The notes: generated from the letters alone by a model not told the origin. 64,000 nucleotides of DNA from Escherichia coli (GCF_003018255.1 NZ_CP027440.1); one strand, 5' to 3'. Positions 4,237-60,634 are shown, numbered from the stretch's first letter. Program-made: numbers and translations.

Positions 4237-5187
4237 ATGCTGAGCGCATTTCAACTGGAAAATAACCGACTGACCCGGCTGGAAGTCGAAGAGTCACAAC
4301 CCCTTGTAAATGCAGTATGGATTGATCTTGTCGAACCGGACGACGACGAGCGACTGCGCGTACAATCTGAACTTGGTCAGAGCCTGGCAACCCGCCCGGA
4401 ACTGGAAGACATCGAAGCATCGGCACGTTTCTTTGAAGACGATGACGGCCTGCATATTCACTCCTTCTTCTTCTTTGAAGATGCGGAAGATCACGCCGGT
4501 AACTCTACTGTGGCATTTACCATCCGTGATGGTCGTCTGTTTACTCTGCGTGAGCGTGAACTGCCTGCATTCCGTCTGTATCGTATGCGCGCCCGTAGCC
4601 AGTCAATGGTGGACGGTAACGCCTACGAGCTGCTGTTGGATCTGTTCGAAACCAAAATCGAACAGTTGGCGGATGAAATTGAAAACATCTACAGCGATCT
4701 GGAGCAGTTGAGCCGGGTGATTATGGAAGGGCATCAGGGCGATGAGTACGACGAGGCGCTCTCCACGCTGGCGGAACTGGAAGATATCGGCTGGAAAGTT
4801 CGCCTGTGTCTGATGGATACCCAGCGTGCGCTCAACTTCCTGGTACGTAAAGCACGCTTACCGGGTGGGCAACTGGAGCAGGCGCGTGAAATCCTGCGAG
4901 ATATCGAATCCCTGCTGCCGCATAACGAATCCCTGTTCCAGAAGGTGAACTTCCTGATGCAGGCGGCGATGGGCTTTATCAATATCGAGCAGAACCGCAT
5001 CATCAAAATCTTCTCGGTGGTATCCGTGGTGTTCCTGCCACCGACGCTGGTCGCTTCCAGCTACGGGATGAACTTTGAGTTTATGCCGGAACTGAAGTGG
5101 AGCTTCGGCTACCCAGGCGCGATTATCTTTATGATCCTCGCGGGCCTGGCACCGTATCTGTACTTTAAGCGGAAGAACTGGTTGTAA
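4237..5187 (+). CDS. corA: Magnesium/cobalt transport protein CorA
   Basis: C-terminal two TM helices with YGMNF motif and KRKNWL tail; start set at the internal Met ([10 protein letters not shown]) giving 316 aa as in K-12; the ORF track start at 4222 is probably an upstream extension. Confidence 0.95.
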
Positions 5188-5222
5188 TATAAATGCCGGG
5201 TAAAGATTGTTCTTTATCCGGC

Positions 5223-5720
5223 TTATTGCTGAAAATTGTCTTTTTCAAAGTCATGCGGGTTGAACACTCGCTCTATCTTATTTTCCTGGGTTAGTTGATA
5301 CTCATTGTTATCAGCAATAAAAAAATGAGTATTACGGTAAGGATATTCATTAATAACCATTAAATAGTTTTTTACGATGCAATTATCATTGCTCTTAATC
5401 GTCGGGAAACAGTAGAGATCTTCATACGGCCCTTCGATATATTTTTTATAGTCAGTGAAGCCATTACCGATATCAATAACATACCAGGTATGCCAACTAC
5501 CTTCTGGTAGGGGATGTTGATTTTTAATTTCATTCTGACGCTTCAGATACCAATTTATTTTATCGCTGTCAGTCCATGGCAGATGATCAACGACCAGAAA
5601 GACTGAATTGCCAGCATCAGAGTATGTATACAAAATCTGTACAGGACGCAATGTCCATAAATTATAGATGCAGCATAGAAGAAATAAACATAATATAATT
5701 TTCTGGAGTTTGCTTTTCAT
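5223..5720 (-). CDS. Hypothetical protein with N-terminal signal peptide/membrane anchor, candidate immunity protein
   Basis: 165 aa ORF; hydrophobic N-terminus KIILCLFLLCCIYNLW; start overlaps stop of the upstream 282 aa gene by 4 bp (ATGA); visibly AT-rich. Confidence 0.55.
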   Translation of the reverse strand: MKSKLQKIILCLFLLCCIYNLWTLRPVQILYTYSDAGNSVFLVVDHLPWTDSDKINWYLKRQNEIKNQHPLPEGSWHTWYVIDIGNGFTDYKKYIEGPYEDLYCFPTIKSNDNCIVKNYLMVINEYPYRNTHFFIADNNEYQLTQENKIERVFNPHDFEKDNFQQ

Positions 5721-6565
5721 AGATAATTTTCGATTCTTTCTATAGTGTTAAAATTGGTGAAAAAAGGTTTGAAAGCAAAGTCTTTATGCCGTTGTAAAAA
5801 GAACCATATGCGAAAAAATCTATATTTGCTATAAGTCTTGTTTTTGATATCAGTTACATCAAGACCGAAGTGGTCCTGTGCTACAAAATGAATTGTTGCA
5901 CTCCATCCTATAGCGTATTTTTGAAAACTTAAAAGAGATATTTTTTGAGCTGAAATATCATGAACACTGATTCCTAAGCCATTAAAACTGTCCTCGAAGT
6001 CATTAAATTTATTTAGTCTTGATGAAAGTAATTCGGTCTTAATCTTTTGTAGGAGAAGAGGCCGGTATCCTATCGTAGGTGTTGAAGAAATATCATTTTC
6101 GATACATTCTTTGATTACACGTATTGGGCTATTATAATCATATTTGTTTATTCGTTCATGAAAAGATAAGTTCAATTCCTGGCTATGGAAACTGTTGCCA
6201 TTTCCATATCTAAAATGATCAATCAGATCCTGGATGAGTGTTTTGTATTGTCCAAAAAAGGAAAACATTTTTGCCAGATCTTTCATTTCTGCAAATAAAA
6301 TATCAATACATTCACTTTGTGATATTTTTGTTCCAGAAGTTGGAACACTAAAAGCACCATAAGTAGAATTCGGCCCAGGAAAATGGTATTTAATGAGGCG
6401 GTAAGGATCAACTTTTGCAGAGATGTCGCTCAAGCCGAGTGAGAGAAAATCTTGTTCTTCCATATCCCCATATTGCATATCATCAGCAGAAAAATCATCG
6501 AATAAAGTAATAGTTTCGAAAAGTGTACAGGGCATATTAATTGATGAGCCTAATATGTTGTTCAT
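5717..6565 (-). CDS. Hypothetical protein, candidate toxin/effector, family not recognised
   Basis: 282 aa ORF without signal peptide, AT-rich codon usage; translationally coupled to the downstream secreted 165 aa ORF; occupies the corA-rarD gap. Confidence 0.55.
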   Translation of the reverse strand: MNNILGSSINMPCTLFETITLFDDFSADDMQYGDMEEQDFLSLGLSDISAKVDPYRLIKYHFPGPNSTYGAFSVPTSGTKISQSECIDILFAEMKDLAKMFSFFGQYKTLIQDLIDHFRYGNGNSFHSQELNLSFHERINKYDYNSPIRVIKECIENDISSTPTIGYRPLLLQKIKTELLSSRLNKFNDFEDSFNGLGISVHDISAQKISLLSFQKYAIGWSATIHFVAQDHFGLDVTDIKNKTYSKYRFFRIWFFLQRHKDFAFKPFFTNFNTIERIENYL

Positions 6566-6875
6566 TTATATTCTCCTTTCTTATAATTAAGGGCAATGTT
6601 AATTTGATAAGAAATAATAGGCTAAAAAAATTTTAAAAAAGAAATGCACTTCACATTTTTCATTACATTCTGAAGAGAACTTGGTTAATGATTGGTCTTG
6701 CTCATCGCTAATAACATAATGCTGAATTTACCAAAAATGAAATTTATTAAAGCAAATGAAAATATACAACGACGTCTGGAAATTCTGCCTTTCCTTATGT
6801 GAGTCTCCTGTCAGCATGGCAATATGCCCACTCTCATGCAAGAGTCGGCATATTTTTTCAGAATATATTTATTTT

Positions 6876-7766
6876 TTATTTGGCCGTTCTACGCTGCGTA
6901 TAAATCGCATCCATCACAAAAATTGCCAGCGCCACCCAAATAAAGGTGAAAGTCACCATCTTATCGGCACCCGGTTTTTCACCATAAAACGTCACTGCCA
7001 ACAGGAACATTAGCGTCGGCCCAATGTACTGGAAAAAGCCTAATGTTGAGAGTCGTAAGCGTGTAGCTGCTGCGGTAAAACATAACAGTGGCACGGTGGT
7101 GACAATACCGGCGGCGATCAGCAGTAAATTCAGCGACATCGGGTTTTGCCCCATATGGCTGGTTGAGCTGTCGGCAATAGCAAACAGGTAAATCGCCGCC
7201 ACGGGCAGCAGCCACATGGTTTCGATTAACATGCCGGTTTGCGCTTCAACGGCAATTTTCTTGCGTACCAGGCCGTAGAAGGCAAAACTAAACGCCAGCC
7301 CCAGCGCGATGATTGGCAGCGAACCAAAAGTCCAGAGCTGGACCAATACACCACATATCGCCAGAATCACCGCCAGCCATTGCATCCGGCGGAATCGCTC
7401 GCCGAGGAAAATCATCCCCAGCACAATGTTCACCAGCGGGTTAATAAAGTAACCAAGGCTCGCTTCCAGCATATGGTGATTGTTCACCGCCCAGATAAAC
7501 AGTAGCCAGTTGCCACCAATCAGCACGGCAGAGACTGCCAGCATGAAGATTTTCTTTGGTGTCTGAATCAGCGTTTTTAAATAGGACCACTGGCGGCAAA
7601 TGCTCATCAGCACCACCATAAAGAAAAACGACCAGATCACGCGATGCGTCAGGATCTCATCGGCGGGCACGTAGTAAATCAGCTTGAAGTACGCTGGCGC
7701 AATACCCCAAATAAAATAAGCGGCAAGAGCGAGTAATACGCCCTGCCGCGTTTGTTTGGTGTCCAT
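6876..7766 (-). CDS. rarD: Chloramphenicol-sensitivity protein RarD (DMT superfamily permease)
   Basis: Polytopic membrane protein with EamA-like repeats; start chosen at MDTKQTRQG; the ORF track gives an alternative start two codons upstream at 7772. Confidence 0.9.
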   Translation of the reverse strand: MDTKQTRQGVLLALAAYFIWGIAPAYFKLIYYVPADEILTHRVIWSFFFMVVLMSICRQWSYLKTLIQTPKKIFMLAVSAVLIGGNWLLFIWAVNNHHMLEASLGYFINPLVNIVLGMIFLGERFRRMQWLAVILAICGVLVQLWTFGSLPIIALGLAFSFAFYGLVRKKIAVEAQTGMLIETMWLLPVAAIYLFAIADSSTSHMGQNPMSLNLLLIAAGIVTTVPLLCFTAAATRLRLSTLGFFQYIGPTLMFLLAVTFYGEKPGADKMVTFTFIWVALAIFVMDAIYTQRRTAK

Positions 7767-16520: not shown

Positions 16521-18782
16521 ATGACAATTCTTAATCACACCCTCGGTTTCCCTCGCGTTGGCCTGCGTCGCGAGCTGAAAAAAGCGCAAGAGAGTTATTG
16601 GGCGGGGAACTCCACGCGTGAAGAACTGCTGGCTGTTGGGCGTGAATTACGTGCCCGTCACTGGGATCAACAAAAGCAGGCGGGTATCGACCTGCTGCCG
16701 GTGGGCGATTTTGCCTGGTACGATCATGTACTGACCACCAGTCTGCTGCTGGGTAACGTTCCGCCACGTCATCAGAACAAAGATGGTTCGGTAGATATCG
16801 ACACCCTGTTCCGTATTGGTCGTGGACGTGCACCGACTGGCGAACCTGCGGCGGCAGCGGAAATGACCAAATGGTTTAACACCAACTATCACTACATGGT
16901 GCCGGAGTTCGTTAAAGGCCAACAGTTCAAACTGACCTGGACGCAGCTGCTGGAGGAAGTGGACGAGGCGCTGGCGCTGGGCCACAAGGTCAAGCCCGTG
17001 CTGCTGGGGCCGGTTACCTACCTGTGGCTGGGTAAAGTGAAAGGTGAACAGTTTGATCGCCTGAGCCTGCTGAACGACATTCTGCCGGTTTATCAGCAAG
17101 TGTTGGCAGAACTGGCAAAACGCGGCATTGAGTGGGTACAGATCGACGAACCAGCGCTGGTACTGGAACTACCGCAGGCGTGGCTGGACGCATACAAACC
17201 CGCTTACGACGCGCTCCAGGGCCAGGTGAAACTGCTGCTGACTACCTATTTTGAAGGCGTAACGCCAAATCTCGACACGATTACTGCGCTGCCTGTTCAG
17301 GGGCTGCATGTGGACCTTGTACATGGTAAAGATGACGTTGCTGAACTGCACAAGCGTCTGCCTTCTGACTGGCTACTGTCTGCGGGTCTGATCAATGGTC
17401 GTAACGTCTGGCGCGCCGATCTTACCGAGAAATATGCGCAAATTAAGGACATTGTCGGCAAACGCGATTTGTGGGTGGCATCTTCCTGCTCGTTGCTGCA
17501 CAGCCCCATCGACCTGAGCGTGGAAACGCGTCTTGATGCAGAAGTGAAAAGCTGGTTTGCCTTCGCCCTACAAAAATGCCATGAACTGGCACTGCTGCGC
17601 GATGCGCTGAACAGTGGTGATACGGCGGCTCTGGCAGAATGGAGCGCTCCGATTCAGGCGCGTCGTCACTCTACCCGTGTCCATAATCCGGCGGTAGAAA
17701 AGCGTCTTGCAGCCATTACCGCCCAGGACAGTCAGCGTGCGAATGTCTATGAAGTGCGTGCTGAAGCCCAGCGTGCGCGTTTTAAACTGCCCGCGTGGCC
17801 GACTACCACGATTGGTTCCTTCCCGCAAACCACGGAAATTCGTACACTGCGTCTGGATTTCAAAAAGGGTAATCTCGACGCCAACAACTACCGCACGGGC
17901 ATTGCGGAACATATCAAGCAGGCCATTGTCGAGCAGGAACGTTTGGGACTGGATGTGCTGGTACATGGCGAGGCCGAGCGTAATGACATGGTGGAATACT
18001 TTGGCGAGCATCTGGATGGCTTTGTCTTTACGCAAAACGGTTGGGTACAGAGCTACGGTTCCCGCTGCGTGAAGCCACCGATTGTCATTGGTGACGTTAG
18101 CCGCCCGGCACCAATTACCGTGGAGTGGGCGAAATATGCACAATCGCTGACCGACAAACCGGTGAAAGGGATGCTGACGGGGCCGGTAACCATACTCTGC
18201 TGGTCATTCCCGCGTGAAGATGTCAGCCGTGAAACCATCGCCAAACAAATTGCGCTGGCGCTGCGTGATGAAGTGGCGGACCTGGAAGCCGCTGGAATTG
18301 GCATCATCCAGATTGATGAACCGGCACTGCGCGAAGGTTTACCGCTGCGTCGCAGCGACTGGGATGCCTATCTCCAGTGGGGCGTGGAGGCTTTCCGTAT
18401 CAACGCCGCCGTGGCGAAAGATGACACACAAATCCACACTCACATGTGTTACTGCGAGTTCAACGACATCATGGATTCGATTGCGGCGCTGGACGCAGAC
18501 GTCATCACCATCGAAACCTCGCGTTCCGACATGGAGTTGCTGGAGTCGTTTGAAGAGTTTGATTATCCAAATGAAATTGGTCCAGGCGTCTATGACATTC
18601 ACTCGCCAAACGTACCGAGCGTGGAATGGATTGAAGCCCTGCTGAAGAAAGCGGCAAAACGCATTCCGGCAGAGCGTCTGTGGGTAAACCCGGACTGTGG
18701 CCTGAAAACGCGCGGCTGGCCAGAAACCCGCGCGGCACTGGCGAACATGGTGCAGGCGGCGCAGAATTTGCGTCGGGGATGA
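16521..18782 (+). CDS. metE: Cobalamin-independent methionine synthase
   Basis: 753 aa; duplicated UroD-like barrel, C-terminal zinc-binding His/Cys/Glu region (HMCYCEF...); divergent from metR. Confidence 0.97.
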
Positions 18783-18950: not shown

Positions 18951-19211
18951 TTATTTATTCTCACGTTGCACGAGATTGTATCCCTTTTCACTAACGTGGT
19001 AGTGAGGCATAGACTTATGCCCGCTATCCTCAATAATAACCAAACCTTCGTTAGCTAATTTGTTAACAATATTAACAATATTACCGAATCCTGGTATTTG
19101 CCTTATGGATAGTGTGCGATCGAGATTCATCCAGTTCCAGTTTATATCTTTCTCAGTCATAACGTTCAGCACGTTAAGTTCATTTTTAGTGATCACGATA
19201 TTCTGTACCAA
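18951..19211 (-). CDS. Candidate immunity protein, paralog 2 (distal copy)
   Basis: 86 aa; clearly paralogous to the 19271..19528 ORF (shared NVL.VM.EKDI.W.WM.LDRTL.IR.IPGFGN..NIV.KL...GLV); AT-rich; downstream of the Hcp-fusion gene. Confidence 0.6.
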   Translation of the reverse strand: MVQNIVITKNELNVLNVMTEKDINWNWMNLDRTLSIRQIPGFGNIVNIVNKLANEGLVIIEDSGHKSMPHYHVSEKGYNLVQRENK

Positions 19212-19270
19212 AATTGATGAGTATCTTATTGAAAGATCACAATGTAAATCATGCTCCTGTAATGGCTGGA

Positions 19271-19528
19271 TCAGAAGAGGTTGTCTTGTTGTTCTTTGAT
19301 AAGATTCAATCCATATTGAGAAACTCTGTAGCGTGGTTTAGAGTTGCCCTCACCATTTACGATATCAACCAACCCATGATTAACCAGCTTTGTTACGATA
19401 TTCGCTACGTTGCCAAATCCTGGAATATTTCGTATAGCTAAAGTACGATCCAGCACCATCCAGCTCCAGTCAATATCTTTCTCAGCCATAACTTTCAGCA
19501 CGTTAAATTCAACTATCGTAATCGTCAT
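19271..19528 (-). CDS. Candidate immunity protein, paralog 1 (proximal copy)
   Basis: 85 aa; start codon overlaps stop of the Hcp-fusion gene by 4 bp (ATGA at 19525-19528), i.e. translationally coupled; paralog of the 18951..19211 ORF. Confidence 0.65.
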   Translation of the reverse strand: MTITIVEFNVLKVMAEKDIDWSWMVLDRTLAIRNIPGFGNVANIVTKLVNHGLVDIVNGEGNSKPRYRVSQYGLNLIKEQQDNLF

Positions 19529-20658
19529 TTTTTTGCATCCGGATGAAATAAGTCAGTATCTTTAATTTTAAAGTCTTCTAGAGTTGCAGTATGTACATTA
19601 TTCCATAATTCATATCCATCTAAACCTTTCGGTTCACCTGTTTCCCATCCTAAATTACAATAACGCTGATACTCGCGACATTCATGAGTATAGTAGTTCA
19701 GATCGTATTTTTCAGGAAGCAATTCTTTATTTGCTATTTTCTTTAGCCTTGAAATCATTACATCATTAGCTGGATCATGATCAAATCTGGAGATATGCTT
19801 TTCAACAATAGCGATACCTTCCCTGTTGATTGTTACGCCATCTATCGTCAGGTTTTCAATTGGACCACCGGCAAGGTCGGGATTAAATGGTCTTCCTGAT
19901 ACTGCTCCTCTGGCTCCGAAATGCTCAAGTGATTCCAAATCAGGGAATCTCATTCTTCCCAGAACAACTCCAGCAACTATTGAAGCACCAGCGATGAGTA
20001 ACCCTTTGTTATCCATAACTTGATCGTAACCAGCAGGTGCATCTCCTCCCAACTTGTTTGCTGTTTCCCTGAATCCTTCGATATTCCCATTGTATATGCC
20101 GCCAGCAGCAAGCAGTCTGCCAACCGCTTTACTATTGAGTGTTTTGAGGCCATTATCATCTTTAGTTTTTGGCCGTGGTATAAACAGACGGTTGTAGTTA
20201 TCGGGAAATGCCAAATAACTAAATTCAGTATTAGCAATCAGATGCCTGGAGAGTATATATTCATAACTGGCAGTGATGGTTTCTGTATCCAGATTGTTCT
20301 CAGTAAACAGGTGATTGATTGCTGATAAGAGCGCGCCGCGGAGTTGAATGTTGTAATATTTCTCCCATCGACCAAATCTATTGATCCGATAGAAGTCAAA
20401 CTCCATGAACAACTGCTCGTTATTGTTAATAGCGTTAATAAGTAACGGGGAGCTTTTGTCAATCAACTTACAGAAACTAAGGCCATGTAATTGTGACCCT
20501 TTGCCTGTATTCGTAATACTATTAGATAGCGAGAACGCGAAGATTTCATCTTCATGGCCAATCTGCCAGCGATTACCTATTGATGCGCTCGTTCCGCAAC
20601 GAGAGGAAATACATCCTTGTTGTTCTCCGGTTATGGTCAGGTAAATAATATCACTCAT
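19525..20658 (-). CDS. Hcp (T6SS tube protein) domain fused to C-terminal extension of unknown function: candidate Hcp-ET type effector
   Basis: 377 aa; first ~165 aa resemble enterobacterial Hcp from memory (YLTITGEQQGCISSRCGTSASIGNRWQIGHEDEIFAF...KLIDKSSPLLINAI...EFDFYRI); ~210 aa C-terminal extension with GxxxG-rich hydrophobic segment and His/Glu/Tyr-rich tail (YYTHECREYQRY); AT-rich. Confidence 0.75.
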   Translation of the reverse strand: MSDIIYLTITGEQQGCISSRCGTSASIGNRWQIGHEDEIFAFSLSNSITNTGKGSQLHGLSFCKLIDKSSPLLINAINNNEQLFMEFDFYRINRFGRWEKYYNIQLRGALLSAINHLFTENNLDTETITASYEYILSRHLIANTEFSYLAFPDNYNRLFIPRPKTKDDNGLKTLNSKAVGRLLAAGGIYNGNIEGFRETANKLGGDAPAGYDQVMDNKGLLIAGASIVAGVVLGRMRFPDLESLEHFGARGAVSGRPFNPDLAGGPIENLTIDGVTINREGIAIVEKHISRFDHDPANDVMISRLKKIANKELLPEKYDLNYYTHECREYQRYCNLGWETGEPKGLDGYELWNNVHTATLEDFKIKDTDLFHPDAKK

Positions 20659-21049: not shown

Positions 21050-21862
21050 CTAATTCCGCTTCCCACCATACTGCTTAAACCACTCCAGCATACGCTGCCA
21101 GCCATCTTTCGCAGATTCGGCATGATAGCTCGGGCGATAATCGGCGTTGAATGCATGCCCGGCATCCGGGTAGACGATAATCTCTGCTTTCGCATTAGCA
21201 GCCCGCAGCGCCTGGCGCATGGTTTCAACGCTCTCCTGCGGAATGCTGTTATCCTGACCACCATATAAGCCGAGAACCGGCGCGTTAAGATCGGTTGCGA
21301 TATCAACAGGTTGTTTCGGTGAATTCAGCGACTTGTCGCCCGTCAGTTTGCCGTACCACGCCACTGCGGCTTTTAGCTGTGGATTATGCGCGGCATACAG
21401 CCAGGTGATACGTCCACCCCAGCAGAATCCGGTGATCATTAAACGATGAACATCGCCGCCGTTGCGGGAAGCCCAACTGGCGACATGATCGAGATCGGCC
21501 AGCACCTGCGAGTCAGGCACTTTTGCTACCAGACCGCTAAGCAACGTGGGGATATCGGCAAAATCATTCGGATCGCCTTCGCGGAAGTAAAGTTCAGGTG
21601 CAATAGCCAGATACCCCTCCAGCGCCAGACGGCGACAAATGTCGCGGATATGTTCATGCACGCCAAAAATTTCCTGCACTACAATGACCACTGGCAGTGG
21701 GCCATCGCTTTGCTTTGGTCTGGCATGGTAAGCAGGCATGTTATCCCCTTGTGAAGGGATAGAGGTGAAGCCCGCCACAATCGCGTCGTCCGGAGTCTGA
21801 ACGATGGTCGAAGCGAGAGGCGATGCCGCAGGTGCAAATCCAGATTGTTGTGTTGTTGCCAT
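21050..21862 (-). CDS. ysgA: Dienelactone hydrolase family protein YsgA
   Basis: alpha/beta hydrolase with dienelactone hydrolase-like sequence (GFCWGG nucleophile region); start chosen at MATTQQSGF; ORF track start at 21928 is a longer alternative. Confidence 0.85.
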   Translation of the reverse strand: MATTQQSGFAPAASPLASTIVQTPDDAIVAGFTSIPSQGDNMPAYHARPKQSDGPLPVVIVVQEIFGVHEHIRDICRRLALEGYLAIAPELYFREGDPNDFADIPTLLSGLVAKVPDSQVLADLDHVASWASRNGGDVHRLMITGFCWGGRITWLYAAHNPQLKAAVAWYGKLTGDKSLNSPKQPVDIATDLNAPVLGLYGGQDNSIPQESVETMRQALRAANAKAEIIVYPDAGHAFNADYRPSYHAESAKDGWQRMLEWFKQYGGKRN

Positions 21863-54974: not shown

Positions 54975-55080
54975 TTATTTAATAAATATAAATACATTCT
55001 GATAATGCGTCCTGCCGCTGGACATTATTTCAGCATAAGTGGATATTCAAAGTTTTGCTGTTTTATCAGGGAATATTTAT

Positions 55081-56511
55081 ATGATACGTAAGTCAGCTAC
55101 AGGTGTTATTGTTGCGTTAGCCGTAATCTGGGGTGGTGGCACATGGTACACAGGTACGCAAATTCAGCCTGGTATCGAAAAGTTTATTAAAGATTTTAAC
55201 GATGCTAAAAAGAAAGGTGAACATGCCTACGATATGACGTTAAGTTATAAAAATTTTGACAAAGGCTTTTTTAATTCTCGTTTTCAAATGCAAATGACAT
55301 TTGATAACGGTGCACCTGATCTCAATATCAAACCTGGCCAGAAAGTTGCGTTTGATGTGGATGTTGAGCACGGTCCGTTACCCATCACAATGTTAATGCG
55401 TGGTAATGTCATCCCCGCACTGGCAGCGGCAAAAGTGAAATTAGTGGATAATGAACTGACACAACCGCTATTTATCGCCGCAAAAAATAAATCTCCTATG
55501 GAAGCGACATTGCGATTCGCGTTTGGTGGCTCATTCTCCACGACATTAGATGTTGCCCCTGCAAAATATGGAAAGTTTTCTTTTGGTGAGGGCCAGTTTA
55601 CTTTTAATGGTGATGGTAGTTCATTGTCTAATCTGGATATTGAAGGCAAAGTCGAAGATCTTGTTCTGGAATTATCGCCATTGAATAAAGTAACGGCGAA
55701 AAGTTTTACCATTGATTCTCTAACGCGATTAGAAGAAAAGAAATTTCCGGTTGGCGAAAGCGAGTCGAAATTCAATCAGATTAACATTATCAATCAGGGA
55801 GAAGACGTTGCCCAAATCGATGCTTTCGTTGCAAAAACCAGGCTGGATCGCGTTAAAGACAAAGATTATATCAATGTCAATCTGACCTACGAACTTGATA
55901 AGTTAACAAAAGGGAATCAGCAACTCGGTAGTGGTGAGTGGTCATTGATTGCTGAATCTATTGATCCCTCAGCGGTGCGCCAATTTGTCATCCAGTATAA
56001 CATTGCGATGCAGAAGCAGCTTGCTGCACACCCTGAGTTAGCAAACGATGAAGTTGCTCTGCAAGAAGTGAATGCTGCATTGTTCAAAGAGTATTTACCG
56101 TTATTACAAAAAAGTGAGCCGACCATTAAACAACCGGTAAGATGGAAGAATGCACTCGGCGAACTAAATGCCAATCTGGATATCAGTATTGCCGACCCAG
56201 CCAAATCCTCATCATCCACAAACAAAGATATTAAATCGCTCATTTTTGATGTGAAGTTACCGCTTAATGTTGTCACAGAAACCGCAAAACAGCTTAATTT
56301 ATCTGAAGGAATGGATGCTGAAAAAGCGCAAAAGCGGGCTGATAAACAAATCAGCGGGATGATGACATTAGGTCAGATGTTTCAGTTAATCACGATTGAC
56401 AACAATACCGCCTCGCTGCAACTGCGTTATACACCGGGTAAAGTTGTTTTTAACGGACAGGAGATGAGCGAAGAAGAATTTATGTCTCGTGCCGGACGTT
56501 TTGTTCATTAA
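55081..56511 (+). CDS. yihF: DUF945 family protein YihF
   Basis: Start chosen at MIRKSATGVIVALAVIWGGGTWYTG (476 aa) with N-terminal TM anchor; K-12 synteny. Confidence 0.85.
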   Translation: MIRKSATGVIVALAVIWGGGTWYTGTQIQPGIEKFIKDFNDAKKKGEHAYDMTLSYKNFDKGFFNSRFQMQMTFDNGAPDLNIKPGQKVAFDVDVEHGPLPITMLMRGNVIPALAAAKVKLVDNELTQPLFIAAKNKSPMEATLRFAFGGSFSTTLDVAPAKYGKFSFGEGQFTFNGDGSSLSNLDIEGKVEDLVLELSPLNKVTAKSFTIDSLTRLEEKKFPVGESESKFNQINIINQGEDVAQIDAFVAKTRLDRVKDKDYINVNLTYELDKLTKGNQQLGSGEWSLIAESIDPSAVRQFVIQYNIAMQKQLAAHPELANDEVALQEVNAALFKEYLPLLQKSEPTIKQPVRWKNALGELNANLDISIADPAKSSSSTNKDIKSLIFDVKLPLNVVTETAKQLNLSEGMDAEKAQKRADKQISGMMTLGQMFQLITIDNNTASLQLRYTPGKVVFNGQEMSEEEFMSRAGRFVH

Positions 56512-56551
56512 AATACTCACTCGCCTCTGCTCATTCAGAGGCGAGCAAAAT

Positions 56552-57484
56552 TTACTTGTCCTGCCGCTGTGATGACATCAACGACATCAGAAGCCGGTCT
56601 TTTTCCTGCCACAGTGAGTTCAGCCATTGCTGAAAATGGCGCTTAAAGCTTTTGTCATTGATGTAGTCGCCATGTAACTCATCGGAAATAGGCTGCAAAT
56701 CCACATGTACGACAATTCGCGTCAGTTTACCGCTTAACATATCGAAGAACGGCTGACGGTTATTGTCCGGATAACACAGCGTAACATTAAGCAGTTTATC
56801 GAATTGTTTACCCAGTACATTTAGCGCCATCGCAATGCCTGCCGCCTTTGGTGGCAACAAGTTTTGAAAAGTGGAGTGCGTTTGCTGATGTTTTTCTTGC
56901 GTGAAACGGGAGCCTTCAACGAAATTGACAATGGTGGTGGGGTGCAGGCGAAACTTTTCACAAGAACGCCGGGTGGTTTCAACATCTTTACCACGTCGTT
57001 CCGGATGACGTAATAAATAAGCGCGGGAATAACGCTTCATAAACGGCATATCCAGCGCCCAGCATGCCAGGCCAAGAAATGGCACCCAGGCAAGCTGCTG
57101 CTTGAGGAAATATTTATTCATCGGAATGTGCTTACGAAACAGCACGCACAGTACGACAATATCTGCCCAACTACGGTGGTTACAAATAAGCAGATACCAG
57201 TTCTTCTTACTTAACCCTTCCAGCCCGTGAACTTCCCATTGCAGGTGTGGGTTCAGATGCAGTAATACCGCCAGACTTTCACACCAGCAATACATCATAA
57301 AATCACAAAAACGCGAAACCTTTCGCCAAATGACTGGCACAGGTAGCAATAGTTTTACAATCCCGGCAATGATGATCGGGACGGAGCAAAAAATAGTGAC
57401 CAAAATGGTCAATACGATACTCAGCAAAAGGGTTATCGCAGCGAGTATTCTCGTCATAATGAATTTATTCAAAAGGTTAGCCAT
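56552..57484 (-). CDS. yihG: PlsC-family acyltransferase YihG
   Basis: Start chosen at [10 protein letters not shown] (310 aa); acyltransferase HX4D-like motif ([10 protein letters not shown]); K-12 synteny. Confidence 0.88.
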
Positions 57485-57847
57485 AGACAGTGCGCTAAAG
57501 AAGCGCAAGGCGCCGATTTTAGCAGAAAACGCCCCAAATAACGGATGATCCTTAAGGAGAAAAATAATTCATATATATCCACATTAGAAAAAATCCCATT
57601 ATCACAATTATTAGGGATGGCTTTATATTTAACTGTATGAAAAGCAAAGACAAATATCATGCTGTAAAAAGCATGATAATAAATTAAAAGCGATGTAAAT
57701 AATTTATGCACAAAGTTATCCACATGACGATTTGCGAGCGATCCAGAAGATCTACAAAAGATTTTCACGAAAAGCGGTGAAAAACTCATGTTTTCATCCT
57801 GTCTGTGGCATCCTTTACCCATAATCTGATAAACAGGCACGGACATT

Positions 57848-60634
57848 ATGGTTCAGATCCCCCAAAATCCACTTATCCTTGTAGATGGTTCATCTTATCT
57901 TTATCGCGCATATCACGCGTTTCCCCCGCTGACTAACAGCGCAGGCGAGCCGACCGGTGCGATGTATGGTGTCCTCAACATGCTGCGCAGTCTAATCATG
58001 CAATATAAACCGACGCATGCAGCGGTGGTCTTTGACGCCAAGGGAAAAACCTTTCGTGATGAACTGTTTGAACATTACAAATCACATCGCCCGCCAATGC
58101 CGGACGATCTGCGTGCACAAATCGAACCCTTGCACGCGATGGTTAAAGCGATGGGACTGCCGCTGCTGGCGGTTTCTGGCGTAGAAGCGGACGACGTTAT
58201 CGGTACTCTGGCGCGGGAAGCCGAAAAAGCCGGGCGTCCGGTGCTGATAAGCACAGGCGATAAAGATATGGCGCAGCTGGTGACGCCAAATATTACGCTT
58301 ATCAATACCATGACGAATACCATCCTCGGCCCGGAAGAGGTGGTGAATAAGTACGGCGTGCCGCCAGAACTGATCATCGACTTCCTGGCGCTGATGGGTG
58401 ACTCCTCTGATAACATCCCTGGCGTACCGGGCGTTGGTGAAAAAACCGCGCAAGCATTGCTACAAGGTCTTGGCGGACTGGATACGCTGTATGCCGAGCC
58501 AGAAAAAATTGCTGGGTTGAGCTTCCGTGGCGCGAAAACAATGGCGGCGAAGCTCGAGCAAAACAAAGAAGTGGCTTATCTCTCTTACCAGCTGGCGACG
58601 ATTAAAACCGACGTTGAACTGGAGCTGACCTGTGAACAACTGGAAGTGCAGCCACCGGTGGCAGAAGAGTTGTTAGGGCTGTTCAAAAAGTATGAGTTCA
58701 AACGCTGGACTGCTGATGTCGAAGCGGGCAAATGGTTACAGGCCAAAGGGGCAAAACCAGCCGCGAAGCCGCAGGAAACCAGTGTTGTAGACGAAGCGCC
58801 AGAAGTGACGGCAACGGTGATTTCTTATGACAACTACGTCACCATCCTTGATGAAGAAACACTGAAAGCGTGGATTGCGAAGCTGGAAAAAGCGCCGGTA
58901 TTTGCATTTGATACCGAAACCGACAGCCTTGATAACATCTCTGCTAACCTGGTCGGGCTTTCTTTTGCTATCGAGCCAGGCGTAGCGGCATATATTCCGG
59001 TTGCTCATGATTATCTTGATGCGCCCGATCAAATCTCTCGCGAGCGTGCACTCGAGTTGCTAAAACCGCTGCTGGAAGATGAAAAGGCGCTGAAGGTTGG
59101 GCAAAACCTGAAATACGATCGCGGTATTCTGGCGAATTACGGCATTGAGCTGCGTGGGATTGCGTTTGATACCATGCTGGAGTCCTACATTCTCAATAGC
59201 GTTGCCGGGCGTCACGATATGGACAGCCTCGCGGAACGTTGGTTGAAGCACAAAACCATCACTTTTGAAGAGATTGCGGGTAAAGGCAAAAATCAACTGA
59301 CCTTTAACCAGATTGCCCTCGAAGAGGCCGGACGTTACGCCGCCGAAGATGCAGATGTCACCTTGCAGTTGCATCTGAAAATGTGGCCGGATCTGCAAAA
59401 ACACAAAGGGCCGTTGAACGTCTTCGAGAATATCGAAATGCCGCTAGTGCCGGTGCTTTCACGCATTGAACGTAACGGTGTGAAGATCGATCCGAAAGTG
59501 CTGCACAATCATTCTGAAGAGCTCACTCTTCGTCTGGCTGAGCTGGAAAAGAAAGCGCATGAAATTGCAGGTGAAGAATTTAACCTTTCCTCCACCAAGC
59601 AGTTGCAAACCATTCTGTTTGAAAAACAGGGAATTAAACCGCTGAAGAAAACGCCGGGTGGCGCGCCGTCAACGTCGGAAGAGGTACTGGAAGAACTGGC
59701 GCTGGACTATCCGTTGCCAAAAGTGATTCTGGAGTATCGTGGTCTGGCGAAGCTGAAATCGACTTACACCGACAAGCTGCCGCTGATGATCAACCCGAAA
59801 ACCGGGCGTGTGCATACCTCTTATCACCAGGCAGTAACTGCAACGGGACGTTTATCGTCAACCGATCCTAACCTGCAAAACATTCCGGTGCGTAACGAAG
59901 AAGGTCGTCGTATCCGCCAGGCGTTTATTGCGCCAGAGGATTATGTGATTGTCTCGGCGGACTACTCGCAGATTGAACTGCGCATTATGGCGCATCTCTC
60001 GCGTGACAAAGGCTTGCTGACCGCATTCGCGGAAGGAAAAGATATCCACCGGGCTACGGCGGCAGAAGTGTTTGGTTTGCCACTGGAAACCGTAACCAGC
60101 GAGCAACGCCGTAGCGCGAAAGCGATCAACTTTGGTCTGATTTATGGCATGAGTGCTTTCGGTCTGGCGCGGCAATTGAACATTCCACGTAAAGAAGCGC
60201 AGAAGTACATGGACCTTTACTTCGAACGCTACCCTGGCGTGCTGGAGTATATGGAACGCACCCGTGCTCAGGCGAAAGAGCAGGGCTACGTTGAAACGCT
60301 GGACGGACGCCGTCTGTATCTGCCGGATATCAAATCCAGCAATGGGGCTCGTCGTGCAGCGGCTGAACGTGCAGCCATTAACGCGCCAATGCAGGGAACC
60401 GCCGCCGACATTATCAAACGGGCGATGATTGCCGTTGATGCGTGGCTACAGGCTGAGCAACCGCGTGTGCGTATGATCATGCAGGTACACGATGAACTGG
60501 TATTTGAAGTTCATAAAGATGATGTCGATGCCGTCGCGAAGCAGATTCATCAACTGATGGAAAACTGTACCCGTCTGGATGTGCCGCTGCTGGTGGAAGT
60601 GGGGAGTGGCGAAAACTGGGATCAGGCGCACTAA
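57848..60634 (+). CDS. polA: DNA polymerase I
   Basis: 928 aa; 5' nuclease, 3'-5' exonuclease and polymerase domains (motif A DYSQIELR, motif [15 protein letters not shown], motif C QVHDE). Confidence 0.98.

Follow-up and report, generated by a model that had tools for sequence, protein, structure and literature searches.

An orphan DUF3289/DUF943 gene pair between corA and rarD of Escherichia coli as a probable T6SS effector/immunity module

Introduction

The best described counterpart of the gene pair considered here comes from Yersinia pseudotuberculosis, in which a PAAR-DUF3289 protein encoded within a T6SS operon kills E. coli when it is targeted to the periplasm, with the affected cells becoming round (PMC11148199, Mol Syst Biol 2024). 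The toxicity of this protein is restricted to periplasmic targeting, and it is neutralised by the product of the neighbouring DUF943 gene, in which residues 7-26 form a transmembrane helix and the remainder is periplasmic (PMC11148199). The authors of that work proposed that the DUF3289 protein is a homologue of colicin M and that the DUF943 protein is its immunity protein, secretion not being shown there (PMC11148199).

A second example was reported in Aeromonas jandaei. An orphan DUF3289 protein is present in the T6SS-dependent secretome, and self-competition identified it, together with the downstream gene, as a true effector/immunity pair, the loss of which sensitises prey to a T6SS+ attacker (PMC12135965, PLoS Biol 2025). 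Moreover, in a survey of Klebsiella, clusters of DUF3289 and DUF943 proteins were linked 780 times within T6SS-associated neighbourhoods. DUF3289 is also found as the C-terminal toxin of PIX-type effectors, and it adjoins VgrG in Enterobacter. A literature search under the family identifiers YPO3983, TIGR03034, PF11692 and PF06092 gave no match.

The present work concerns a window of 64,000 nucleotides of the E. coli chromosome (NZ_CP027440.1), in which two AT-rich genes lie between corA and rarD. An initial annotation of this DNA had proposed that they encode a periplasm-acting toxin and its immunity protein, of families that it did not recognise. This proposal is supported by the analysis, particularly as the same DUF3289/DUF943 pairing has been published as toxin and immunity protein (PMC11148199). 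Both families do have names, DUF3289/TIGR03034 and DUF943, and RefSeq already applies them to the proteins of the closest genomes (WP_001059675.1 and WP_000837559.1).

Organisation of the locus

The interval between corA and rarD contains two overlapping open reading frames on the minus strand, encoding proteins of 282 and 165 aa (Table 1). Their coordinates and lengths, the ATGA motif at which they overlap and their low GC content had all been described in the initial annotation, and each of these features was borne out. The GC content of the two reading frames is 0.33-0.35, and that of the segment 5150-6800 is 0.28-0.35, compared with 0.50-0.56 in corA and rarD. The third codon positions follow the same pattern, with GC3 values of 0.27 and 0.36 in the pair genes versus 0.63 in each of the two flanking genes.

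The ATGA overlap implies that the putative effector and immunity genes would be translationally coupled. The gene ends also overlap or abut in the homologous pairs of Salmonella, Enterobacter and other bacteria. The AT-rich region upstream of the 282-aa reading frame presumably carries the promoter of the effector gene; in 6566..6875, a consensus scan of the minus strand turned up neither a sigma-70-like site nor any excess over shuffled sequences. At the other end of the pair, a hairpin recovered by a terminator scan is likely to be a terminator common to corA and the DUF943 gene, which converge on it.

Table 1. Features of the corA-rarD interval and of related segments. Positions refer to the window unless another contig is named.
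Feature	Position	Strand	Description
Candidate effector gene	5717..6565	-	282-aa stand-alone protein of the DUF3289 / YPO3983 family, ATG start, without signal peptide
Candidate immunity gene	5223..5720	-	165-aa DUF943 protein, ATG start, N-terminal transmembrane anchor, remainder predicted periplasmic
ATGA stop/start overlap of the two reading frames	5717..5720	-	read from the sequence
Shine-Dalgarno AGGAG (gaaAGGAGaatataaATG)	6573..6577	-	7 nt 5' of the effector ATG; read from the sequence
AT-rich upstream intergenic region	6566..6875	-	GC about 0.28-0.36; contains the yigG 5' remnant
Hairpin, 12-bp stem	5195..5222		between the convergent corA and DUF943 genes; inside the islet; terminator scan
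AT-rich islet, putatively inserted, about 1.54-1.55 kb	5188..6731		from the corA stop codon to the yigG-remnant junction
corA	4237..5187	+	left flank of the pair
rarD	7766..6876	-	right flank of the pair
yigG 5' remnant	about 6732-6790		alignment to K-12 yigG
147-bp corA 3'-end duplicate	L003 (E. coli B) 5649-5795; L002 4153-4299		92-95% identity with the end of the functional corA
Second AT-rich islet, GC 0.38	18951-20658		between metE (16521-18782) and ysgA (21050-21862)
Hcp-toxin fusion gene (candidate), 377 aa	20658..19525	-	N-terminal TssD/Hcp: TIGR03344, 124.5 bits (cut-off 58.9), PF05638
Paralogous small ORFs, 85 and 86 aa	19528..19271, 19211..18951	-	3' of the Hcp-toxin fusion

Properties of the two proteins

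The 282-aa protein matches the Pfam family PF11692 (DUF3289) with an E-value of 6.7e-83 over profile positions 2-270 of 272, and the NCBIfam model TIGR03034 (YPO3983 family) with 405.6 bits (cut-off 156.45) over positions 1-274 of 274. The 165-aa protein matches PF06092 (DUF943) with an E-value of 1.8e-27 over positions 1-150 of 151. These two Pfam E-values indicate that the pair consists of real genes, ruling out chance open reading frames. The effector reading of the initial annotation met no competing housekeeping function either, as the homology search assigned the 282-aa protein to DUF3289/TIGR03034. Additionally, neither of the two proteins matches any anti-phage defence model in PADLOC.

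In an alignment of 30 DUF3289 sequences, with identities down to 27%, residues D24, D29, M30, F91, H232, F233, G234, D239, F251, W254, L257, Q258 and P267 are invariant, and H202, D203, D231 and D236 are nearly invariant. The protein encoded in the window has every one of these residues. The earlier claim that it is made without a signal peptide holds as well: no hydrophobic N-terminal segment was found, the maximum 19-residue Kyte-Doolittle mean being 1.17.

The DUF3289 family, represented by 476 sequences at E <= 0.001, comprises stand-alone forms of about 280 aa and N-terminally extended fusions. In relatives of about 410 aa, the N-terminal extensions look PAAR-like in our own reading of the sequences, and the AlphaFold database calls such fused relatives 'PAAR domain-containing protein'. 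NCBIfam models applied to the long fused relatives gave zero VgrG, PAAR or Rhs matches. Residues 9-274 of the E. coli protein align to residues 129-394 of one such relative (P0170) with 37% identity, a value that refers to the closest PAAR-fused relative found, used as a stand-in for the tested Yersinia protein.

An AlphaFold model of the 282-aa protein, built from the 30-sequence alignment, reached a pLDDT of 87.1 and a pTM of 0.83. The predicted fold matches a solved T6SS effector structure of DUF3289 type. Among the best 50 structural matches in the AlphaFold database, nearly all bear the name DUF3289 or YPO3983/TIGR03034, several have PAAR domain names as well, and a few have uninformative or other names.

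The 165-aa protein has a hydrophobic segment at residues 8-26, with a 19-residue Kyte-Doolittle mean of 1.79, in agreement with the N-terminal signal or anchor recognised in the initial annotation. Its AlphaFold model places a helix over residues 2-23, in a model with a pLDDT of only 59.9. At the positions of two cysteines within the hydrophobic segment, homologues have G, A or S. Since these cysteines are not conserved, the segment is a membrane anchor and not a lipoprotein signal. A search of PDB sequences with the DUF943 profile found no chain. The DUF943 gene lies directly 3' of a DUF3289 gene, on the same strand, in four to five other contexts, including those of Salmonella and Enterobacter, a gene order that is thus conserved in unrelated neighbourhoods.

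Relation to the colicin M family

The proposed kinship of DUF3289 proteins with colicin M was considered at the levels of both structure and sequence. Beyond the DUF3289 family, the next Foldseek match to the effector model is PaeM (4g76), a marginal one with an E-value of 0.035 and a TM-score of 0.29. The sole non-DUF3289 structures that align over 120-200 residues are those of PaeM, syringacin M, colicin M and pectocin M1, in each case with marginal fold scores.

At the sequence level, the colicin M signature DxYDx5HR, with residues D226, Y228, D229, H235 and R236 of ColM, is invariant throughout an alignment of colicin M catalytic domains. The colicin M query sequence used for this alignment agreed with 2xmx at 270/271 residues, and frameshifted homologues were left out. 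A regular-expression search of the 282-aa protein found neither DxYDx5HR nor the relaxed form D.[YFW]D, and the set of invariant DUF3289 residues differs from the colicin M signature. Homology to colicin M (PF14859) at the sequence level was rejected, as an hhalign comparison of the DUF3289 and colicin M alignments gave a probability of 0.12% and an E-value of 0.48, and the Pfam scan returned DUF3289 alone. The label 'colicin M homologue' for DUF3289 proteins goes back to a weak structural similarity, which was reproduced here only at marginal scores.

Distribution and history of the locus

The 1851-bp interval was searched for, at a coverage of at least 80%, in 5426 complete E. coli genomes. 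The pair occupies the corA-rarD position in 2625 of them (48%), and the remainder carry yigF-yigG. In the K-12-type order, corA-yigF-yigG-rarD, the genes yigF and yigG are 381 bp each, and yigF belongs to DUF2628. In E. coli B, corA is followed by the DUF943 and DUF3289 genes, then by 147 bp copied from the corA 3' end, and then by yigF, a yigG that contains an internal stop, and rarD; this layout, in which both gene sets stand side by side, is common to 299 genomes. A Shiga-toxin-type strain has the pair and the corA fragment, followed by an unrelated 300-bp reading frame. In effect, the dimorphism of E. coli at corA-rarD can be read as the presence or absence of an orphan toxin module of T6SS type.

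In the window, homology to K-12 ends at the corA stop codon (5187, by BLAST) and restarts at 6732, within the 5' end of yigG. The window has no duplicate of the corA 3' end, and its islet directly abuts what is left of yigG. The islet of E. coli B and 2009C-4687 runs about 17 bp longer and is then followed by the 147-bp duplicate. All copies of the corA 3' end are 92-97% identical to each other, values that do not single out the native copy. The coexistence of the pair, the corA fragment and yigF/yigG in E. coli B suggests that the islet, about 1.55 kb long, was inserted next to corA, with the duplicated corA end marking the junction, and that in the lineage of the window a later deletion may have taken the corA fragment together with yigF and the greater part of yigG. 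The replacement of yigF and yigG, as originally described, thus holds for this strain, but it is not complete, as the 5' remnant of yigG stays, and it does not extend to the species, as other E. coli have both sets.

Related pairs are found beyond E. coli. In Salmonella enterica, a pair with 64% identity occupies the same position between rarD and corA (the carrier of P0041; related clusters bear the names houtenae, arizonae and salamae). In Enterobacter, a truncated DUF3289 gene and a DUF943 gene precede a complete pair at another locus (L007 6499-9319). Other enterobacteria have the pair beside valS, and elsewhere one DUF3289 gene is followed by two DUF943 genes (L015 341-2238). Such arrays resemble those of orphan immunity genes in other polymorphic toxin systems. 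No T6SS genes were found near the pair in the Salmonella, Enterobacter or other enterobacterial contexts examined, indicating that the stand-alone form of DUF3289 is typically an orphan.

The alleles of the pair also differ within E. coli. Relative to the allele of E. coli B, the effector shows 34 residue differences, all within positions 1-178, and the immunity protein differs mostly at residues 133-139 and at its C-terminus. In terms of DNA, positions 5388-5987 of the window, corresponding to immunity codons 1-110 and effector codons 181-282, are 98-100% identical to the E. coli B-type allele, and the flanks 5188-5387 and 5988-6748 are 78-91% identical to it. The C-terminal 100 effector codons are conserved between the alleles even at synonymous sites. 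By this comparison with the E. coli B-type allele, which is the common one, the islet is a recombination mosaic. If the variable N-terminal part of the effector and the variable C-terminal part of the immunity protein are the contact surfaces, the alleles would not cross-protect. That the pair serves as a kin-discrimination module, with its specificity in a swappable part, is a long shot. Should it be true, carriers would be sorted into immunity groups, and strains without a T6SS would keep the pair as armour.

T6SS genes in the window and in related genomes

Over positions 1-25000, the window and E. coli JNE23-011 share 99.9% identity and the same gene coordinates. An identity of at least 99% over these 25 kb was reached by only 3 of 5443 E. 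coli records, among them JNE23-011 and JNE112863 (human, Japan) at 99.9%. All other E. coli records lie at 95-99%, the best remaining among the matches listed being at 96.4-96.9%. So few near-identical records indicate that the window stems from an E. coli lineage that is divergent and seldom sequenced.

The closest genome, JNE23-011, which serves as a stand-in for the genome of the window, has a complete T6SS core gene set. At aspV, it carries tssA, tssB, tssC, tssE, tssF, tssG, tssH, tssJ, tssK, tssM, tagH, dotU, vasI, two hcp genes, vgrG and an rhs core gene. In this cluster, a gene with a VasL domain (L010 14772-16182) is annotated as frameshifted. No PAAR, VgrG, Hcp, MIX, FIX, PIX or adaptor gene was found in the effector or at the corA-rarD locus.

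The pair also occurs in strains without this cluster. Strain 200164, which encodes an identical effector, has IS remnants alone between aspV and yafV, and E. coli B (B-LamR, L011) has IS1/ISAs1 remnants in place of the cluster, with the pair intact. These two strains lack the aspV cluster yet have the pair, which shows that it persists without that machine, the absence of a T6SS having been judged at the aspV region alone.

Derivatives of E. coli B serve as hosts in toxicity assays of the DUF3289 family. For instance, E. coli BL21 was the host in which the periplasmic toxicity of the Yersinia DUF3289 protein was observed (PMC11148199). If BL21 keeps the pair of B-LamR, its own DUF943 protein did not protect it, which would mean either that immunity is allele-specific or that the gene is silent.

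Another element of the window carries a T6SS-related gene. The second AT-rich islet contains an open reading frame whose product begins with a TssD/Hcp domain, and the C-terminal part of this product, about 230 aa, has no match in Pfam, NCBIfam, PADLOC or the PDB. RefSeq labels the 377-aa protein plainly as tssD. Together with the paralogous small reading frames that follow it, the module at 18951-20658 looks like an 'evolved Hcp' toxin accompanied by two candidate immunity genes.

A stretch of lower GC content (0.40-0.44) at 55000-58000, situated between a DsbA-like gene and polA, contains a 490-aa reading frame (55039-56511, plus strand) and a 318-aa acyltransferase-like one (57508..56552, minus strand). 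These are presumably the core genes yihF and yihG.

Interpretation and alternative explanations

The favoured explanation is that the pair constitutes an orphan antibacterial effector/immunity module of DUF3289/DUF943 type, delivered by a T6SS and acting in the periplasm, with a probability of about 0.72. Its components differ in strength. That the two genes are an orphan effector/immunity pair is very probable. Delivery by a T6SS in this lineage, as judged by analogy, is probable. Action on the cell wall within the periplasm is reasonably supported by the homologues, and for a periplasmic toxin of this kind the cell wall is the better guess as the target.

According to this model, the DUF3289 protein, lacking a signal peptide, would be synthesised in the cytoplasm and loaded as cargo on a T6SS encoded elsewhere in the chromosome, which would inject it into the periplasm of nearby bacteria, where it would damage the synthesis or integrity of the cell wall. 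In the least certain step of the model, it may cleave the undecaprenyl-linked peptidoglycan precursor as colicin M does; such cleavage of lipid II by the DUF3289 protein is a tentative and somewhat doubtful hypothesis. The DUF943 protein, co-translated through the ATGA overlap, would be tethered to the inner membrane by one N-terminal helix, most of the protein lying in the periplasm, where it would bind the toxin arriving from sister cells and block it. Toxicity, neutralisation, T6SS dependence and the cell-wall target are all modelled here on homologues, whereas family membership, topology, gene coupling, the fold match and the T6SS of the closest genome come from the analysis itself. The candidate Hcp-toxin fusion in the window speaks for the model as well. 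Against it count the missing T6SS marker at the locus, the retention of the pair by strain 200164 and E. coli B without the aspV cluster, the missing consensus promoter and the distance of the closest PAAR-fused relative, with its 37% identity.

Several other explanations deserve weighing. The pair could be an effector and its immunity protein as proposed, with the toxin hitting another envelope target, such as mature peptidoglycan or another step involving a lipid carrier. This is a serious contender but an unlikely one, as the colicin M-type bacteriocins are the sole other structures aligned over 120-200 residues, and the rounding of cells caused by the periplasmic homologue fits a loss of cell-wall synthesis (PMC11148199). 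Another explanation regards the module as mainly defensive or as a leftover: the effector would go unfired in many carriers, the DUF943 protein would shield them against the DUF3289 toxins of neighbours, and the effector gene would be a silent passenger in AT-rich DNA of the H-NS type. The intact pairs that E. coli B and strain 200164 keep without the aspV cluster speak in its favour, as do the missing consensus promoter upstream of the effector gene, the effector-less extra DUF943 genes and the truncated DUF3289 gene at other loci, and the many short E. coli DUF3289 clusters, some of which contig ends may account for. It is nevertheless improbable for the module as a whole, considering that the effector reading frame is intact and 100% identical in the window and in strain 200164, that the alleles agree over its last 100 codons even at synonymous sites, and that the closest genome has a complete T6SS. 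For this particular strain, a defensive or leftover role is compatible with the main explanation.

A module that works independently of any T6SS, either as a chromosomal addiction or abortive-infection toxin-antitoxin system or as a released bacteriocin, would agree with the orphan locus, which has no secretion gene nearby, and with the occurrence of the pair in genomes without the aspV cluster. PADLOC gives no match for such a system, and a cytoplasmic toxin-antitoxin pair is hard to reconcile with a toxin devoid of a signal peptide and an antidote exposed to the periplasm. A bacteriocin fits no better, as the whole protein is a DUF3289 domain, and neither a domain for receptor binding or translocation nor a lysis gene is present. 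Moreover, relatives of the protein are PAAR-fused, and one relative is a proven T6SS cargo, so that this explanation is highly improbable. Finally, the position between corA and rarD, which the pair shares with yigF and yigG, could mean that its genes are diverged orthologues of the latter. The chance of this is practically nil: the pair belongs to DUF3289 and DUF943, as against DUF2628 for yigF, its genes differ in length from the 381-bp K-12 genes, and both sets coexist in E. coli B. The initial view that these reading frames are distinct from the K-12 yigF and yigG products is thereby upheld.

The favoured module of effector and immunity protein would belong to a kind of system that is already known, present in about half of E. 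coli. Little in it is new, as both families are named in RefSeq and the DUF3289/DUF943 pairing has been in the literature since 2024, described as an effector that targets the cell wall and the corresponding immunity protein.

Comparison with described systems

The colicin M family (ColM, PaeM, syringacin M and the pectocins; PF14859) resembles the putative effector in its periplasmic action. The immunity protein of colicin M is anchored in the inner membrane and faces the periplasm, and the DUF943 protein is predicted to share this arrangement. The two systems differ in the way in which the toxin reaches its target: colicin M is taken up via FhuA/TonB, whereas the DUF3289 protein would be delivered by a T6SS, without receptor-binding or translocation domains.

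A structural counterpart is the C-terminal domain of BtpeA, with its partner BtpiA, from Bacteroides fragilis (PDB 9jdi, 9jg8, 9jg9). Its identity to the E. coli effector is only 18-21%, and it forms part of a 608-aa PAAR-like spike effector, whereas the E. coli protein is a bare domain. BtpiA has no detectable relationship to DUF943, as the DUF943 profile finds no PDB chain.

Both Pfam domains recur, with an effector gene followed by an immunity gene, in the pair T6EC1/T6IC1 of Yersinia pseudotuberculosis IP32881, whose immunity protein likewise has an N-terminal transmembrane helix and its bulk in the periplasm (PMC11148199). The difference lies in architecture and location, as the Yersinia effector is PAAR-fused, whereas the E. 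coli protein is a bare DUF3289 domain encoded at an orphan housekeeping locus. The Aeromonas jandaei DSM 7311 protein WP_042032936.1 resembles the E. coli effector in that it contains DUF3289, is encoded away from the T6SS genes and is followed downstream by its immunity gene (PMC12135965).
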